This document shows, in pieces, positions 103 through 30,183 of a stretch of DNA of 33,955 nucleotides. The stretch spans positions 1 to 33,955 of IMG/VR virus record IMGVR_UViG_3300045988_173800. The stretch is one strand, 5' to 3'. The notes under the pieces are model-generated. The model saw only the letters and a program-made list of their open reading frames with translations. It ran no database searches and was not told the origin of the DNA. The first letter of the stretch is position 1. Each line of letters starts with the position of its first letter. A program made the translations under genes and the position numbers. The stretch comes from a virus.

Positions 103-1263
103 TCACGCCTTGCTTTCGGAATCTTGGACGTAGGCAATCAGTTTGTCGATAGACGCCTGCTTTTTTCGCTGGCGAAGATGCGTATAGATCGCGATGGTGG
201 TCTCAACGTGGGCGTGCCCGAGCAGGGCGCGGGCCGTGTGAACGTCGACGTCCGCCTCAAACAGCGTGGTCGCGTAGCCATGCCGCAGGACGTGCGGCGT
301 GAGCGTGTTCCGGTAGTGGTGCTTCAGGTACTTGTGCCCATTGACGCCCACCGTCTCGGTCGGCGCGTCCGTGAAAAAGCCCATATCCCGGCAGTAGTGG
401 TTCCAGTGCTTGAGATAGGTCGAGCGCGAGAGGAATTTTTTCGGGTCCTTGCCATGAAAAACATAGTCGTCCGGCTCGCCCTGCATCGGTCGGAGCAGGG
501 TCTCGGCAGGAGGCAGCAGCGGCAGCGTGCGGATGCCAGCCTCCGTTTTAGGATCGCCGACCTTGTGGACGCCGTGGTAGGAGAGATTTTTGGTGCAGGC
601 TATCTGCTTCGCCTTAAAATCAATGTCGCCCCATTGCAAGCCCAGCGCTTCACCGCGGCGCAGGCCGGTGTAAATCAGGAACAGGGCAAACTCGCCCCAG
701 TACGCCTCTCCTGCGCGGGCTTTGATCGCGTCCACGATATCGTCTTCCGGCGCTTCCCTTTTCTGCGCCGCTTTCGCGCCGGTCGGTATCGCAATGCCGA
801 GCGCCGGATTGGTCTTGACGGTCTGGCCGAAGATCGAGTCGGCCACGGCGAAAGCGAAAATACTCTTGTAGACCGTTCGCTGGGCGCGGATCGTGCGCAC
901 AGAATAGTCGGCCTCCTTCATTGCCTGCAGGTGCGCGGCGATGTTGCTGGTGAGGACCTCATCGGCGGGGACGTCGCCGAGCCGTTCGACCGCGCGCTCA
1001 TACGGTGCCTTGTAGCAGTCAATGGAGCCGTCGCGGTATTCCTTCCACTTTTTCTCCTGCCATGCCTCCGCGACGGTGCGGAAAAGCAGCTTCGTCGGCT
1101 GCTCCTTCGCCTGAATACGCCGGTACAGCTTCTCCGGGTCGCGGTCGCAGATCGTGTGCCGCGGGCCTTTCGGCAGACCGTCGGCGTCGAGCTCGTGCCA
1201 GTAGCCCTGATAACGGCCATCTGCGCGCAGCGTATAGAGCTTTTTATAATTGATTTTCGCCAT
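103..1263 (-). CDS. int: Tyrosine recombinase / phage integrase
   Basis: ORF 103..1308. Contains LRRGEALGLQWGDID (catalytic Arg region) and HVLRHGYAT...LLGHAHVETTIAIYTH (HxxR ... Y). Start trimmed to ATG 1263 (MAKINYKK) behind GGAGAGGA. Lies next to attL. Confidence 0.93.
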   Translation of the reverse strand: MAKINYKKLYTLRADGRYQGYWHELDADGLPKGPRHTICDRDPEKLYRRIQAKEQPTKLLFRTVAEAWQEKKWKEYRDGSIDCYKAPYERAVERLGDVPADEVLTSNIAAHLQAMKEADYSVRTIRAQRTVYKSIFAFAVADSIFGQTVKTNPALGIAIPTGAKAAQKREAPEDDIVDAIKARAGEAYWGEFALFLIYTGLRRGEALGLQWGDIDFKAKQIACTKNLSYHGVHKVGDPKTEAGIRTLPLLPPAETLLRPMQGEPDDYVFHGKDPKKFLSRSTYLKHWNHYCRDMGFFTDAPTETVGVNGHKYLKHHYRNTLTPHVLRHGYATTLFEADVDVHTARALLGHAHVETTIAIYTHLRQRKKQASIDKLIAYVQDSESKA

Positions 1264-1333
1264 GTGTCCTCTCCCCTGCGCTTGCGAAAATGGAACGACC
1301 GCCGCCATGCCGGGCGGCGGCCTTTTGCGTCAC

Positions 1334-1981
1334 TTAATAGCCATTCTGCTCGACGCCATAAACGGCTTGCTCATACGTAAATCCTTCGTATTCCAACTGC
1401 TCAATCAAACGCTCACGGGAAAACGACGAATGCTTTAAGTAGCTTGCCGCTTTCCCTGCAGCCTGCTCCTTCCAGTCTGCACCGCAGCTATCCGCGCCAT
1501 AGACGGCTTGTTCATGCGTAAACTCCTCATATTCAAGCTGCTCGATCAGCCCGTTGTATGAAAAGTTGGAATAGCTCAAATAACCGAGTGCTTTTCCTGC
1601 GGCCTGCTCGTTCCAGTTTGCACCGCAGTTATCCGCAGCAAAGGTAGCTTCGGACAGCGAATATCCTTCATATTCCAGCTGCCCCACTAACCCATCATGC
1701 GAAAAATTAGAGTGGCTTAAATATCGCTTTGCCGTTTTCAGGGCGTTTTTCTCTCCCATTGTCGCATCCGGAAATTCCTCAACGGGCTCTGGCTCAGATG
1801 TCGGAATGTCTTTCGGCTGCGCTGCCGTGGAGGTTGAAGTGCTTGACTGGCTCGGCAGATCTGATGACTGGCTGCGGTTTTCACGCCCATTTCTACCGAT
1901 GCTGCTGAGGATGAAAAGTGCAACTAAGACAATGAACCAAGTGCGCTTGTAAAAGGGCTTTTTCTGCTTTTCTTCGCTCAT
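1334..1981 (-). CDS. ltp: Ltp-family (TP-J34 Ltp-like) putative superinfection-exclusion protein, N-terminal TM anchor plus three Ltp repeats
   Basis: Three tandem repeats of the type YLxxSxFSxxGLxxQLEYEGFxxEQAxYGxxxxGxxW. N-terminal TWFIVLVALFILSSI helix. ATG 1981 (MSEEKQKK) behind GGAGGG. Classic position between int and the repressor. Confidence 0.85.
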   Translation of the reverse strand: MSEEKQKKPFYKRTWFIVLVALFILSSIGRNGRENRSQSSDLPSQSSTSTSTAAQPKDIPTSEPEPVEEFPDATMGEKNALKTAKRYLSHSNFSHDGLVGQLEYEGYSLSEATFAADNCGANWNEQAAGKALGYLSYSNFSYNGLIEQLEYEEFTHEQAVYGADSCGADWKEQAAGKAASYLKHSSFSRERLIEQLEYEGFTYEQAVYGVEQNGY

Positions 1982-1995
1982 GTCGTCCCTCCCTC

Positions 1996-2012
1996 GTGCC
2001 CGAATCGGGCAC
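1996..2012. repeat. 17-bp palindrome GTGCCCGAATCGGGCAC, copy 1 (intergenic, 5' of ltp-like gene)
   Basis: Exact 8+1+8 palindrome, followed on the plus strand by AATTTTTTATATTTT. It lies 15 nt upstream of the ltp-like start codon. Confidence 0.95.
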
Positions 2013-3595: not shown

Positions 3596-3627
3596 ATCGA
3601 CATTACCACAAAGGAGGAATGATAACA

Positions 3628-4194
3628 ATGGCAGCGTTATACCCAAATATCTATAAAAGGGCGCGCAAGGTGACCCTTTTGACGCAGGAGGAGGCGGCGG
3701 AGCGGCTGCACATCTCGCCCGAAACGCTCAAGCGCTACGAGGGCGGACGGCTCACACCGCCGGACGAGACCGTGGCGCGGATGTGCGAGGTCTACGGCGC
3801 GAGGTGGCTGGCGCTGGAGCACGCGCAGGCGACCGACCGGCTCGGCATCCTGCCGGAGCTGGAGCCCAAGCCCCTGCCGATGGCGACCATCTCGCTGACC
3901 AACCGACTGCGCGACGCAGCGGACCGGCTGGCCGGATTGCTCCGCATCGCCGAGGACGGCGTGATCGACGACGCGGAGCGCCCGGAGTTTGACGACATCG
4001 TGCAGGATCTGCGCGAGACCATCGCCGCGGCCTATCAGGTGATCTACGCGGACGGCGCAAAAAAAGAACGCCCCGAGGCTGGCACCTCGAAGCGTTCACG
4101 CTCTCAGAGAAAAACCTCTGAAAACCATTGCAAGGCTATTGTACCGCAGAAAAAGAGAAATGTCAAGGCTCTCCGAGAGGAGGCGCGCGCATGA
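3628..4194 (+). CDS. XRE-type HTH protein with C-terminal extension
   Basis: LLTQEEAAERLHISPETLKRYEGG HTH motif. ATG 3628 is 10 nt after AGGAGG; the ORF track start is 3619. Confidence 0.7.
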   Translation: MAALYPNIYKRARKVTLLTQEEAAERLHISPETLKRYEGGRLTPPDETVARMCEVYGARWLALEHAQATDRLGILPELEPKPLPMATISLTNRLRDAADRLAGLLRIAEDGVIDDAERPEFDDIVQDLRETIAAAYQVIYADGAKKERPEAGTSKRSRSQRKTSENHCKAIVPQKKRNVKALREEARA

Positions 4195-27775: not shown

Positions 27776-28267
27776 ATGCCAGACGATTACTATGTTTCAA
27801 AATACTCCGGCGAGGAGATCGACGCGCTGCTCGGCGGCGCGGGCACGGGCACCGTCCGCTACGACGCGGCGCAGACCCTCACCGACGAGCAGAAAGCGCA
27901 GGCCCGGACGAACATCGGGGCGGACACCGTGCAGGGCGCGGTTCTTTATACACCGCAAAATCTTAGTAACGTGCAGCAACAGCAGGCGAGGGAAAATATT
28001 TTTGCTGCGCCAGCAGATAAGTTCCCATACTTTGCTGTTCCCACTGGGACTGCTATGGAAAAAACATTTGAAGTACCAAGCGTCTGGAGGACATATCTTG
28101 TCGTGTCAACTTATGCGGGCCAACTGGGGATGTGGATGGTTTTGCCAAATGACAACGTAGTCGTGCCTATAGTAGAAAATTCCGCGGTCACGATAACTTG
28201 TGAAGTAGGCAAAATCCACACAAAAGGAGCGCAAGTTATCACAATAATTTATCTTGGGAATTCTTAA
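27776..28267 (+). CDS. Tail fibre / receptor-binding-like protein with AT-richer C-terminal module
   Basis: N-terminal YSGEEIDALL. Repeats LTDEQKAQARTNIGA and LSNVQQQQARENIFA are typical of fibre shafts. Base composition drops visibly from about 27950. Confidence 0.6.
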   Translation: MPDDYYVSKYSGEEIDALLGGAGTGTVRYDAAQTLTDEQKAQARTNIGADTVQGAVLYTPQNLSNVQQQQARENIFAAPADKFPYFAVPTGTAMEKTFEVPSVWRTYLVVSTYAGQLGMWMVLPNDNVVVPIVENSAVTITCEVGKIHTKGAQVITIIYLGNS

Positions 28268-28426
28268 ACTGATTTAATTTTAACTGCACGAAATCAAGTC
28301 GGATTCTACCCTAAAAACTGCAACTTTTAAGGAGTGTGTTACGACGGAGACGATCGTCTGCGCCCTTATTACCGGGGGGCTGACGCTGATGGGCGTGCTC
28401 AACCCTTAGTAAGAATCTAACCTCAT

Positions 28427-28513
28427 ATGGTTACTACTCGTATCGCATCCGATGGCAAGGGCGAGCACGACTATGAAGAGATCACCGGCGAAAGCTACGC
28501 TGATGATAAATAA
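28427..28513 (+). pseudogene. Truncated duplicate of the 5' end of the downstream gene (28-codon ORF, no RBS)
   Basis: 28427..28457 matches 28544..28574 at 28 of 31 positions (ATGgtTACTACTCGTATCGCATCCGAtGGCA vs ATGacTACTACTCGTATCGCATCCGAcGGCA). Confidence 0.4.
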
Positions 28514-28543
28514 ATTTTGAACGAAGAAAAGGAGAACAAAACT

Positions 28544-28801
28544 ATGACTACTACTCGTATCGCATCCGACGGCAGACCCATCGAGGTCATCGACACCCCT
28601 GCGGGCCTGAGCGAGAGCGCGGGTGTCAAGAACAGCATCGTGCAGCCCGTCATGCGCCGCGACCTTTCCCGCGCCGGCACGGAGATCTATGTCGCCCCGT
28701 ACTACAAGCTCACCTATGACGCAGACGGCTACTGCGTCAAGATGACGGCCTGCGCCATCCCCGAGGACATCGCGGAAAAGCTCGCGGAGCTGAACAAGTA
28801 A
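28544..28801 (+). CDS. Hypothetical protein (85 aa)
   Basis: ATG 28544 behind AAAGGAGAA, within ORF 28517..28801. Confidence 0.6.
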   Translation: MTTTRIASDGRPIEVIDTPAGLSESAGVKNSIVQPVMRRDLSRAGTEIYVAPYYKLTYDADGYCVKMTACAIPEDIAEKLAELNK

Positions 28802-28822
28802 AAAAACCGCCCCGGAGGGCGG
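28800..28822 (-). terminator. Rho-independent terminator that is canonical only on the minus strand
   Basis: Plus strand reads A7-CCGCCC-CGGA-GGGCGG-CAAATT. On the minus strand the hairpin is followed by TTTTTTT. Confidence 0.55.
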
Positions 28823-28826
28823 CAAA

Positions 28827-28856
28827 TTGACAAAGCGCGGCAGACTGTGCTATAAT
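28827..28856 (+). promoter_or_regulatory. Near-consensus sigma-70 promoter with extended -10
   Basis: TTGACA (28827..28832), 18 nt, TGcTATAAT (28848..28856). Confidence 0.75.
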
Positions 28857-28910
28857 TCGCCTGCCGGTAAGAACGGCAAGGTTGTCCACTTCCTGCAAAG
28901 GAGGTGCGCG

Positions 28911-29000
28911 ATGGTTACATACGCTGATATGTTTACATATTCGCTTGTGCTCATCGGTCTTGCGTCTCTGATCTTCACGGTCACAAGACATAAGAAATAA
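28911..29000 (+). CDS. 29-aa hydrophobic peptide, holin-like-toxin (Hol_Tox) type; candidate type I toxin
   Basis: Hand translation: MVTYADMFTYSLVLIGLASLIFTVTRHKK. GGAGGTG RBS (28900..28906) can pair with CACTTCC (28887..28893). Confidence 0.6.
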   Translation: MVTYADMFTYSLVLIGLASLIFTVTRHKK

Positions 29001-29094
29001 CCGCCCACCATAGCGGTAAGCGGCGTTTCCTTCGAGCTATAAACTCACTGAGGGACGACCGCCACCAGCAATGGCAGCCGTTCTTACTGGCCTA

Positions 29095-29124
29095 AATATA
29101 GCACACCTAAAGCCGCTTTGTCAA
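29095..29124 (-). promoter_or_regulatory. Near-consensus minus-strand promoter convergent with the toxin promoter
   Basis: Minus strand reads TTGACA (29124..29119), 18 nt, TGcTATATT (29103..29095). It shares TTGACAAAGCG and GTGCTATA with the plus-strand promoter. Confidence 0.6.
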
Positions 29125-29146
29125 GCAAGACAAGGCGGCTTTTTTC
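29111..29146 (+). terminator. Rho-independent terminator of the toxin transcript
   Basis: AGCCGCTTTGTC-AAGCAA-GACAAGGCGGCT (one mismatch) followed by TTTTTT. Confidence 0.75.
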
Positions 29147-29173
29147 GCGCCGCCGGAAAGAGAGACAACGCCT

Positions 29174-29479
29174 ATGGAAAGTTTATCGAAATTAGCGGCG
29201 CTGTGCTCGGAGCTGACGGTGATCCTCGCGGCGGTCGCCATGCTCGTCAAGCCGCTGCGCAATAAAATGCTCGGGCTGGACAAGCTGACCGACGCGCTCA
29301 AATGCCAGCTCCGGCACGACATGCTGCACACCTACTACCGCCACAGAGAGGACCGCACCATCCGGCAGTACGAGCTGGAGGATTTTCTCTATCTCTACCG
29401 CGGGTACAAGGCCCTCGGCGGCAACAGCTTTATCGACCGCATCAAGTCGGAGATCGACGAATGGGAGGTGATCTCATGA
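29174..29479 (+). CDS. N-terminally membrane-anchored protein (101 aa), lysis-cassette associated
   Basis: Contains the LAALCSELTVILAAVAMLV helix. It is the first gene of the lysis block. Function not recognised. Confidence 0.55.
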   Translation: MESLSKLAALCSELTVILAAVAMLVKPLRNKMLGLDKLTDALKCQLRHDMLHTYYRHREDRTIRQYELEDFLYLYRGYKALGGNSFIDRIKSEIDEWEVIS

Positions 29480-30183
29480 GAGACATCAAAGGCTCGACCT
29501 CGGAGGAGGTGCGCATGATCCGCGCCATCCAACGCTCCGTCGGTGCGCTGGACAACGGCTGGATCGGCAACCAGACCATGAGCGACATCGCCGCCAAGCT
29601 CGGCGCGGACTGCTTTCCGCTCAACGTCGAGCTGTACGGTCAGCCCTGCATCATCGCGCGGGACATTGAGCCTGTCAACATGAGCGGGCCGCTGCCGCGC
29701 AACGCCATCTCGGGGAGCTTTTCTTGGCAGGGGCAGCCCTGCTCCATCCTCGTGCGCGGCGGCAAGGTCGTGCGCGGCATGAGCTGTCACTATCCTCGCC
29801 CCGAGAGCGTGCTCTACAAGACCTTAGATGGCGCGGTGCGCATCGCCAGCGTCTCCTCGGCAGCGGCGCTGGGTGACGTCGTGTGGGCGGTCGGCGGGCT
29901 TGGTCTGCTCGACCTCTATAACCCTGCCGCGGAGGGCTTCACAGGGGCGTACAGCGACGTGCTGCGCAAGACTAACCACACCGTCCTCGGCTACAAGGGC
30001 GGGCTGCTCTACGGCGTCTACTGCCGCAGCATGACCGCGCAGCAGGTCAACGCCTTTTGTCGGGACAAGCTCAAGCTGGAATACGCCGTCATGCTCGACG
30101 GCGGGCACGTCGCCGCCATCCACGGCGCGTGTAACAAAATCAACACAAACCAGCGGCAATATTACGCCGTGCGGTTTCTGTAA
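29476..30183 (+). CDS. Putative cell-wall hydrolase, phosphodiester glycosidase (NAGPA/DUF2233)-like, with PG-binding-like N-terminus
   Basis: ATGA coupling and GGGAGGTG RBS. N-terminal IRAIQRSVGALDNGWIGNQTMSDIA. C-terminal AVGGLGLL ... YAVMLDGGHVAA resembles the NAGPA DGGGS region. Confidence 0.45.
   Translation: MRDIKGSTSEEVRMIRAIQRSVGALDNGWIGNQTMSDIAAKLGADCFPLNVELYGQPCIIARDIEPVNMSGPLPRNAISGSFSWQGQPCSILVRGGKVVRGMSCHYPRPESVLYKTLDGAVRIASVSSAAALGDVVWAVGGLGLLDLYNPAAEGFTGAYSDVLRKTNHTVLGYKGGLLYGVYCRSMTAQQVNAFCRDKLKLEYAVMLDGGHVAAIHGACNKINTNQRQYYAVRFL

Follow-up and report, generated by a model that had tools for sequence, protein, structure and literature searches.

We analysed the complete contig of a virus (IMG/VR record IMGVR_UViG_3300045988_173800; the window is this whole stretch of 33,955 bp, which has direct terminal repeats) and describe here a small cassette, inserted between a gene for an 85-aa protein and one for a 101-aa protein, that is probably a type I toxin-antitoxin module. 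Its layout would be that of TxpA/RatA, BsrG/SR4 and SprG/SprF, and its carrier would be a temperate phage of Oscillospiraceae, in which the module is a moron. A type I toxin-antitoxin-like cassette, expressed in the lysogen as a moron or as an addiction/abortive-infection module, had already been proposed from the sequence alone, in what we call the original prediction. The arguments for this reading come from the insertion itself, from an open reading frame (ORF) for a short hydrophobic peptide, from covariation in the predicted RNA, from antisense signals and from the family to which the peptide appears to belong.

Related viral contigs were fetched by means of the two flanking proteins, and 62 distinct contigs carry both flanks. 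The site between them is filled in 43, by an A-like cassette (A being the allele of the window) in 32 and by a B- or C-like cassette in 11. In the remaining 19 the site is empty, a spacer of 52–56 nt between flanking genes that are otherwise the same. Filled spacers measure ~375 nt for allele A, whose copies are 98–99% identical, and 355–398 nt for allele B and its variants (~70% identical). Since it has a promoter and terminators of its own and lies between genes that are adjacent elsewhere, the cassette is a moron, a discrete unit added to the phage genome. Some of the phages whose downstream gene is 97–98% identical to that of the window carry allele B, and the alleles have therefore been exchanged by recombination. 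The outer 25–35 nt at the two cassette ends (28802-28826 and 29125-29160) are nearly identical between the alleles compared for this purpose (L043, L046 and L156), with interiors at ~70%, and such conserved ends suggest that the exchange took place there.

Two predicted transcription units facing each other

The original prediction had placed two convergent, near-consensus promoters with TG-extended -10 elements in the cassette, and both are there: that of the toxin matches the consensus at 12 of 12 positions and that of the antitoxin at 11 of 12 (Table 1). Sites with at least 11/12 matches number three in the window, this pair being two of them, and composition-preserving shuffles gave a mean of 0.075 such sites, or 0.01 with the TG extension. 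The third site (4137-4166, minus strand, TTGACA-17-TACAAT) lies inside the 3' end of an XRE-type helix-turn-helix gene (3619-4194) in the lysogeny-control region. Across alleles the toxin -35 and extended -10 are kept, with TATAAT, TAGAAT and TATGAT as variants of the -10. The two promoter regions had also been described as inverted copies of each other, and this is borne out by -35 arms (TTGACAAAGCG) that agree at 11/11 positions and by -10 arms (TGTGCTATAATT versus AAATATAGCACA) that agree at 92% over 12 nt. Likewise, the leader at 28863..28877 is complementary to 29077..29091, as claimed, the inverted repeat extending over 15 nt at 93%. The repeat thus described for the promoters and early transcribed regions is present, with one correction to its meaning: its effect is that the two RNAs begin with similar sequences, which are not complementary to each other.

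Terminators were found at both ends and in the interior of the cassette. On the left, a hairpin that had been noticed at 28807..28822 for its U-tract on the minus strand only proved to be a minus-strand terminator (28823-28806) with a run of seven T. It is conserved in all alleles, the plus strand lacking a U-tract there, and it would halt antisense read-through ahead of the fibre genes. On the right, the strong plus-strand terminator of the original prediction is predicted to form a 14-bp hairpin with a U run behind it (29109-29148); it was missing from our terminator scan because its stem absorbs three of the U residues. A U-G pair in this terminator is present in 8/8 aligned sequences, where the minus-strand equivalent would be a C-A mismatch, and the -35 of the antitoxin promoter sits within its stem. 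A second minus-strand terminator, which had been missed, lies between the two, its hairpin (29024-29000) directly abutting the stop codon of the ORF and its tail, UAUUUCUUAU, being the complement of the last codons (…HKK-stop).

The predicted toxin mRNA (28863-29148) has a minimum free energy of -120.6 kcal/mol (z = -7.8 vs shuffles), and the corresponding fold holds a 15-bp helix between the 5' and 3' parts of the RNA, an 8-bp Shine-Dalgarno (SD) hairpin and the terminator. The 29-codon ORF is present behind an SD predicted to be sequestered, as had been proposed, with GGAGGTG (28900-28906) as the SD and CACTTCC (28887-28893) as the anti-SD that faces it in the stem. In what we call the 5'-3' lock, the 5' end of the mRNA is predicted to pair with the 3' untranslated region (UTR) a short way ahead of the terminator, over 15 + 8 bp. 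The database T1TAdb lists SD/anti-SD pairing, 5' and 3' stem-loops and a 5'-3' long-distance interaction as the defining features of type I toxin mRNAs (PMC8594479), and the cassette mRNA, as modelled, would fit this description with its sequestered SD, its long-distance interaction and its terminator stem-loop.

Both structures change in step between alleles. The SD hairpin reads CTTCC/GGAGG, CTTCC/GGGGG or CCCCC/GGGGG, the lock shows compensatory changes from C-G to U-A and from A-U to G-C, and a G/A polymorphism at 28866 always stands opposite U. In an RNAalifold consensus of eight divergent sequences from the A, B and C groups, 96.8% of cells were paired, compared with 37–53% in slid controls. 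Seven pairs changed on both sides in this alignment (0–3 in controls), of which the 5'-3' helix accounts for two and a hairpin of the 3' UTR for four. A helix of 21–36 pairs between 5' leader and 3' UTR recurs in every cassette type, although the sequences that form it differ. The lock helix is more stable on the sense than on the reverse strand in 15 of 16 variants, with 61 G-U pairs against 23, and this bias argues for selection on the sense RNA rather than on a DNA repeat.

The last point matters for an alternative, that the cassette is a mobile or recombining element like a miniature inverted-repeat transposable element (MITE), with imperfect terminal repeats of ~75 bp that resemble promoters by chance and with the ORF and RNA structures as by-products. 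Such an element would account for two ends that are imperfect inverted copies, for presence/absence polymorphism and several insertion contexts, and for tandem copies. However, we saw no convincing target-site duplication when filled and empty junctions were compared, purifying selection acts on the ORF, which gives way to other hydrophobic peptides and is not lost, and departures from the perfect repeat are biased to G-U on one strand, a bias that a DNA-level repeat does not predict. In addition, both -10 elements hold their spacing and TG extension amid diverging sequence. A MITE was rejected as the main explanation on the first three of these points, and we consider it very improbable.

For the antisense side of the putative toxin-antitoxin module, the original prediction had a minus-strand transcript running back across the cassette. 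The minus-strand promoter is indeed directed across it, but the proximal terminator makes an RNA of ~97 nt, ending at 29024-28990, the likeliest antitoxin, so that a cassette-crossing transcript is not the only product to be considered. This shorter RNA is complementary to the 3' UTR of the toxin mRNA and to its last three codons, and has a predicted minimum free energy of -42.7 kcal/mol (z = -3.7). At the level of sequence signals it has what an antisense gene needs, namely its own promoter, its own terminator and an overlap with the toxin mRNA. The 5' ends of mRNA and antisense RNA are near-identical and both are complementary to 29077-29091. Since the first 12 nt of the antisense RNA cover 12 of the 15 nt in the 3' arm of the lock, the mRNA 5' end and the antisense RNA would compete for one site. 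The 3' UTR also holds SD-like GGGA/GGGGGAG and a conserved CACC (29053-29058 and 29066-29069, plus strand); RNAalifold pairs this CACC with the GGUG of the SD through four pairs that carry no informative covariation. The antisense complement of the SD-like stretch (UCCCUC/CUCCCCC) resembles an anti-SD, and a second, trans contact of the antisense RNA with the SD is conceivable.

These antisense signals recur in other cassettes. An antitoxin -10 (TATAAT, TATATT, TATACT or TATAAC) stands at 16–18 nt spacing in every cassette type; the DNA pattern used to search for further cassettes held the -35 and the terminator, not the -10. Loci found solely by peptide profile show the same convergent pairs of 12/12 and 11/12 promoters. 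In every intact cassette type a GC-rich minus-strand hairpin of 10–13 bp stands against the stop codon and leads into a U-rich tail, for which the final codons of the ORF (KK, KRK or PKA) serve as template, and the predicted antisense RNAs are 92–103 nt long in all types. The invariance of AAGAAATAACCGCC across alleles A, B and C is explained by these last codons also writing the tail of the antisense terminator.

Table 1. Features of the putative toxin-antitoxin cassette, in window coordinates (SD, Shine-Dalgarno; lock, pairing of the mRNA 5' end with the 3' UTR)
Feature	Position	Strand	Details
Whole cassette	28802..29160		~360 bp; inserted between the 85-aa gene and the 101-aa gene
Distal minus-strand terminator	28800..28823 (hairpin 28823-28806)	-	7 pairs, 6 of them G-C; tail TTTTTTT
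Toxin promoter	28827-28856	+	TTGACA-18-TG-c-TATAAT; 12/12 matches, TG extension
Predicted toxin mRNA	28863..29148	+	~286 nt; start placed from the -10, 3' end from the terminator
5' arms of the 5'-3' lock	28863..28887	+	GCCGGTAAGAACGGC (28863-28877), GGTTGTCC (28880-28887)
Anti-SD/SD hairpin	28887..28906	+	CACTTCC(T) GCAA (A)GGAGGTG; 8 bp in the minimum-free-energy fold
Toxin ORF	28911-29000	+	29 aa, MVTYADMFTYSLVLIGLASLIFTVTRHKK
Proximal antisense terminator	28990..29024 (hairpin 29024-29000)	-	11 pairs; abuts the stop codon; tail UAUUUCUUAU
3' arms of the 5'-3' lock	29053..29091	+	GGACGACC (29053-29060), GCCGTTCTTACTGGC (29077-29091)
Predicted antitoxin RNA	~29088 to ~28992/28990	-	~97-99 nt; start placed from the -10
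Antitoxin promoter	29124-29095	-	TTGACA-18-TG-c-TATATT; 11/12 matches, TG extension
Toxin mRNA terminator	29109-29148	+	predicted 14-bp hairpin, then a U run

The predicted toxin and its peptide family

With a GRAVY score of 0.81, a best 15-aa window of 2.25 at residues 11–25 and a C-terminus of RHKK, the 29-aa product of the ORF is predicted to form one hydrophobic helix, with residues 11–25 as its core, and a basic tail. It agrees with the general description of type I toxins as peptides of fewer than 60–70 aa that are hydrophobic, have a transmembrane segment and end in polar or charged residues. Among 33 distinct sequences of allele A the ORF is the least variable part of the transcript, with three variable sites in 90 nt (two synonymous and one T9A), compared with 6/48 in the leader and ~14/110 in the 3' UTR, and it is under purifying selection within this allele. 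Between alleles, the MVTYADMF…RHKK of the window is exchanged for MSTEATIALLMLVIAAIKLGIDLKK in allele B and MTTMEVLTLLLLLAAVIFGILGYIKK in allele C. What all three have in common is the start codon, the SD and the final AAGAAATAA; the remainder of the peptide is replaced. We take the ORF to be a gene, conserved in homologous cassettes in the sense that a short hydrophobic peptide with a basic tail is retained even across alleles with almost no shared sequence. A minus-strand ORF of 53 aa (28850-29011) has no SD and lies antisense to a toxin ORF that is replaced wholesale between alleles.

The original prediction had also likened the peptide to the 'putative holin-like toxin' family. The Pfam model is PF16935, Hol_Tox, which includes TxpA and BsrG and has a gathering score of 23.3 bits, and TxpA family members had been annotated as holin-like toxins (Fozo et al., PMC2887945). 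The resemblance does not hold for the window peptide taken alone, which has no Pfam match, and does hold through profiles of its subfamily. The closest subfamily member, a sister peptide (L164), matches Hol_Tox with 17.3 bits (E 0.0045), under the gathering score. A profile of six subfamily sequences, with a first row of 30 aa, was run against 1.84 billion proteins at E up to 0.001 and retrieved 488 representative clusters of the form MVTYxxLFxYxLVxIGxxxLVxQIxKKK. Hol_Tox is matched by 14 of 30 relatives retrieved in this way, three of them above the gathering score (33.4, 27.7 and 24.5 bits), for which the subfamily profile had given E 1e-8 to 1e-6. Run on profiles of the window subfamily and of the Hol_Tox-positive set, hhalign gives 99.4% and E 3e-21. 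By such transitive evidence, and not by a curated threshold, the window peptide appears to be a divergent branch of the Hol_Tox (TxpA/BsrG) superfamily.

Other matches of the 30 relatives are to NCBIfam NF041589 PepG1, the SprG1 toxin (11 relatives, best E 2.2e-6, all below the curated cut-off of 70 bits), and to ComI (five relatives). The window peptide itself has no match to PepG1 in NCBIfam, and the likeness of the subfamily to PepG1 is best described as distant, not as that of an equivalog. None of the cluster members looked up has a functional name. A literature search on TxpA N-terminal motif strings found nothing; judging from alignments to hidden Markov models, the MVTYE-x-L at the N-terminus presumably resembles the N-termini of TxpA and BsrG.

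Several results weigh against a type I toxin-antitoxin module. The window peptide alone has no match in scans of Pfam (E up to 10), NCBIfam or PHROG, and none of the Rfam families of type I toxin or antitoxin RNAs was matched when 28000-30000 was scanned with cmscan (E up to 10), which gave five unrelated matches at chance level. The covariation evidence comes from few independent lineages. Among the loci derived from the DNA pattern, the conserved -35 and terminator are to be expected because the pattern contained both. The length of the antisense RNA is uncertain because the U-tract of the proximal terminator is interrupted, and an excess of antitoxin cannot be assumed because the toxin promoter scores at least as high as the antitoxin promoter.

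Distribution of the cassette and the neighbouring lysis block

Searching with the right-hand terminator/-35 motif gave 10 loci in genomes of Oscillospiraceae, Dysosmobacter and unclassified Clostridiales, one of them on a 570-kb contig of the cultured Oscillospiraceae isolate CM18GR_63, which carries the sister cassette L164, and 94 stretches in viral contigs. Of the 201 genomes that were sampled from the host family, 30 (~15%) encode members of the peptide family, with up to six matches per genome. The peptide family is common yet uncatalogued in gut Oscillospiraceae and their phages, while the kind of system, a toxin with an RNA antidote, is already known. The phage GenBank collection held no annotated relative of the cassette, and its only matches were 260 bp to the downstream gene, on an unannotated fragment, and a spurious 55 bp.

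Loci of the same layout encode further peptides, namely MVTYESLFAYSLVIIGLVGLIVQICKRK and its relatives and a dissimilar MGNGRW…SPKAC group. In one copy from a metagenome-assembled genome (L169:400-760), an ORF of the MGNGRW type is frameshifted (MGNGRRAKALRILVWFYRGPCDHG…) with the promoters and the 5'-3' helix intact, which could reflect an inactivated toxin or an assembly error; this locus and L176 were excluded from our conclusions as ORF mis-calls. Cassettes also occur in tandem. Locus L172 (1-400, minus strand) has a B-type unit followed directly by an MVTY-type unit, and L166 and L171 have two units each. One Oscillospiraceae genome, of another species, has three units ~350 nt apart (L273:690-1740, G021:C23), each with its own convergent pair of 12/12 and 11/12 promoters; this array was found by peptide profile only.

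The phage is temperate, with genes in the window for a tyrosine integrase (103-1305, minus strand), DnaB, ParA/ParB, XRE-type regulators and an Ltp-type lipoprotein, and its host is best read as a member of Oscillospiraceae. Expression of the cassette in the lysogen is therefore plausible. The lipoprotein gene (1334-2011, minus strand) adjoins the integrase gene and has three Ltp repeats (Pfam Lipoprotein_Ltp, E 3e-37), and its product is a candidate superinfection-exclusion protein made from the prophage. To the left of the cassette, the 85-aa gene ends at 28801. To the right, the gene for the 101-aa protein (29174-29479), which is membrane-anchored, is the first of a lysis block that continues with a 235-aa protein (NAGPA-like, a weak, sub-threshold match), a 62-aa two-helix holin candidate and an endolysin with CHAP and peptidoglycan-binding domains. 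The 101-aa protein belongs to phrog_4105, of unknown function; it shows high conservation across more than 80 related contigs and forms the constant flank to the right of the cassette site.

The contexts of the cassette vary: positions between fibre genes and a holin are frequent, and others are between tail genes or elsewhere. In several different phages it often lies directly upstream of holin or lysis genes, as might be expected if it were a moron for a membrane peptide with no toxin-antitoxin function. The peptide would then serve holin timing, lysis or superinfection exclusion, and the sole role of the antisense RNA would be to adjust peptide levels; neither addiction nor killing would be involved. 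The name 'holin-like' of the Pfam family fits this, as does a passage in PMC8621323 that reports a prophage hok/sok locus to aid phage release, and accessory membrane functions are already present in this phage in the form of the Ltp-type lipoprotein. However, the 19 of 62 related phages that have no cassette keep the same lysis block; the cassette is therefore not needed for lysis, and an essential lysis component is ruled out. Furthermore, the peptide family is multi-copy, tandem and found in non-lysis contexts of bacterial genomes, consensus promoters of the housekeeping-sigma type indicate expression outside the late lytic programme, and relatives of the peptide match the model of a validated type I toxin, PepG1, if weakly and below its cut-off. 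We regard a membrane-peptide moron without toxin-antitoxin function as unlikely.

Hardly credible, in our estimate, is a transcriptional insulator between the tail-fibre and lysis operons, working by termination or interference, to which the small ORF would be irrelevant. It would explain three terminators and two facing promoters within 360 bp between two late gene blocks. It would not explain why relatives with the empty spacer of 52–56 nt have the same flanking genes, why the ORF, the SD hairpin and the 5'-3' lock are conserved or covary, or why the same cassette also occurs at sites that are not operon boundaries of this kind.

Known systems, a possible mechanism and wider meaning

The known systems closest to the cassette, read as a type I module, are bsrG/SR4, bsrH/as-bsrH and txpA/RatA, followed by sprG1/SprF1 and the prophage modules of Clostridioides difficile. 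The systems of the Bacillus subtilis prophages and skin element (bsrG/SR4, bsrE/SR5, bsrH/as-bsrH and txpA/RatA) share with it a hydrophobic toxin (29–59 aa), a prophage location, an SD in a hairpin and, by the transitive evidence above, apparent membership of the Hol_Tox peptide family. The bsrH mRNA, for example, is 285 nt long and encodes 29 aa (PMC6562991). In Gram-positive type I systems the antisense RNA lies on the 3' side (PMC8594479). The B. subtilis antitoxins bind the 3' ends of the toxin mRNAs and recruit RNase III (PMC6562991), RNase III-mediated decay being the established mechanism there, and binding of SR4 at the bsrG 3' end also changes the fold of the SD region, tightening SD sequestration (PMC3834814). 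The cassette differs from these systems in having no nucleotide or Rfam similarity to them, a divergent peptide that alone is below the cut-off, and a predicted antisense RNA of ~97 nt instead of 163–222 nt. Unlike in those systems, the mRNA and antisense 5' ends share a site in the 3' UTR, the antitoxin -35 is embedded in the toxin terminator, and the host is a high-GC member of Oscillospiraceae rather than Bacillus.

In sprG1/SprF1 of Staphylococcus aureus, where the toxin is PepG1, the antisense RNA overlaps the 3' end of the mRNA, as is predicted for the cassette. The sprG1 gene encodes two peptides from alternative start codons. PepG1 matches among our relatives are all far under the 70-bit cut-off, and the window peptide has none; T1TAdb groups SprG with TxpA (PMC8594479). 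The modules of the C. difficile elements phiCD630-1 and phiCD630-2 are, like the cassette, carried by a Clostridia prophage and made of convergent, overlapping toxin and antitoxin genes, and their prophage-stabilising role has been shown experimentally (PMC7699646, PMC6563280). Their toxins also have a hydrophobic N-terminal part and a Lys-rich C-terminus, and there are several modules per element. However, these toxins have 34–59 aa and are stated in a review to lack sequence homology to known type I toxins (PMC6563280), and some of the antitoxins are linked to cyclic di-GMP riboswitches or CRISPR arrays, neither of which is present at the cassette.

More distant are two systems that share single features. 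The hok/sok locus of plasmid R1 and enterobacterial prophages combines a 5'-3' fold-back lock with a sequestered SD, the lock of the cassette being a structure prediction. Through its lock, hok mRNA persists as an inert, stable reserve. Sok pairs with the 5' leader and works via a coupled reading frame, whereas the antisense RNA of the cassette would act at the 3' end, and the hok peptide family, from Gram-negative bacteria, is unrelated to that of the cassette. The par locus of Enterococcus faecalis pAD1 (fst RNA I/RNA II) is similar in its convergent transcription, its repeats near the promoters and its small membrane toxin. The par repeats are direct, and as a consequence the two RNAs are complementary in their 5' regions, which span the fst start codon. 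In the cassette, by contrast, the repeats are inverted and the RNA 5' ends are alike, which sets it apart from par/Fst.

We propose the following course of events. In the lysogen, both RNAs would be made by the host housekeeping sigma factor. The SD hairpin would keep the mRNA untranslated, and the 5'-3' lock would keep it compact and stable. The antisense RNA would pair with the 3' UTR over ~90 bp, leading to cleavage by RNase III and then to decay, as with txpA/RatA, and its binding may also alter the fold around the SD, as that of SR4 does. Because the first 12 nt of the antisense RNA would bind the same site as the mRNA 5' end, binding would have to open the lock, and the G-U pair of the lock, set against perfect antisense pairing, would favour this opening. 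Once the antisense RNA is depleted, by prophage loss, transcription shut-off or stress, the peptide would be made and would damage the membrane. The pay-off would most likely be prophage retention or phage-phage competition, and a contribution of the cassette to lysis is possible.

A more speculative proposal, on which we would not rely at present, is that the cassette is an exchangeable chassis, in which at least three dissimilar peptide groups use the same near-invariant ends and alleles are swapped. The left end consists of a terminator and the toxin -35, and the right end of the toxin terminator enclosing the antitoxin -35; the 5'-3' lock and the predicted antisense RNA are private to each peptide group and have co-evolved with it. 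If this reading is true, the ends would be recombination handles for trading sets of toxin and antisense RNA that do not neutralise one another, for example in phage competition. The antisense RNA, in mimicking the mRNA 5' end and competing with it for one 3' UTR site, would then make the mRNA a three-state switch that is locked, antisense-bound and degraded, or open and translated.

Beyond a few model organisms, catalogues of type I systems are poor, since annotation pipelines miss genes as small as theirs. The locus leaves the general picture of these systems unchanged and adds a well-resolved example from phages of gut Oscillospiraceae. What stands out is one chassis with at least three peptide groups, the allele swaps and the binding site shared by both 5' ends. 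Filled, empty and allele-swapped sites among near-identical phages form a natural comparison set in which effects on prophage stability, exclusion of rivals or lysis could be sought, and the G-U bias to the sense strand, together with the shared binding site of the 5' ends, offers a concrete and testable RNA mechanism.

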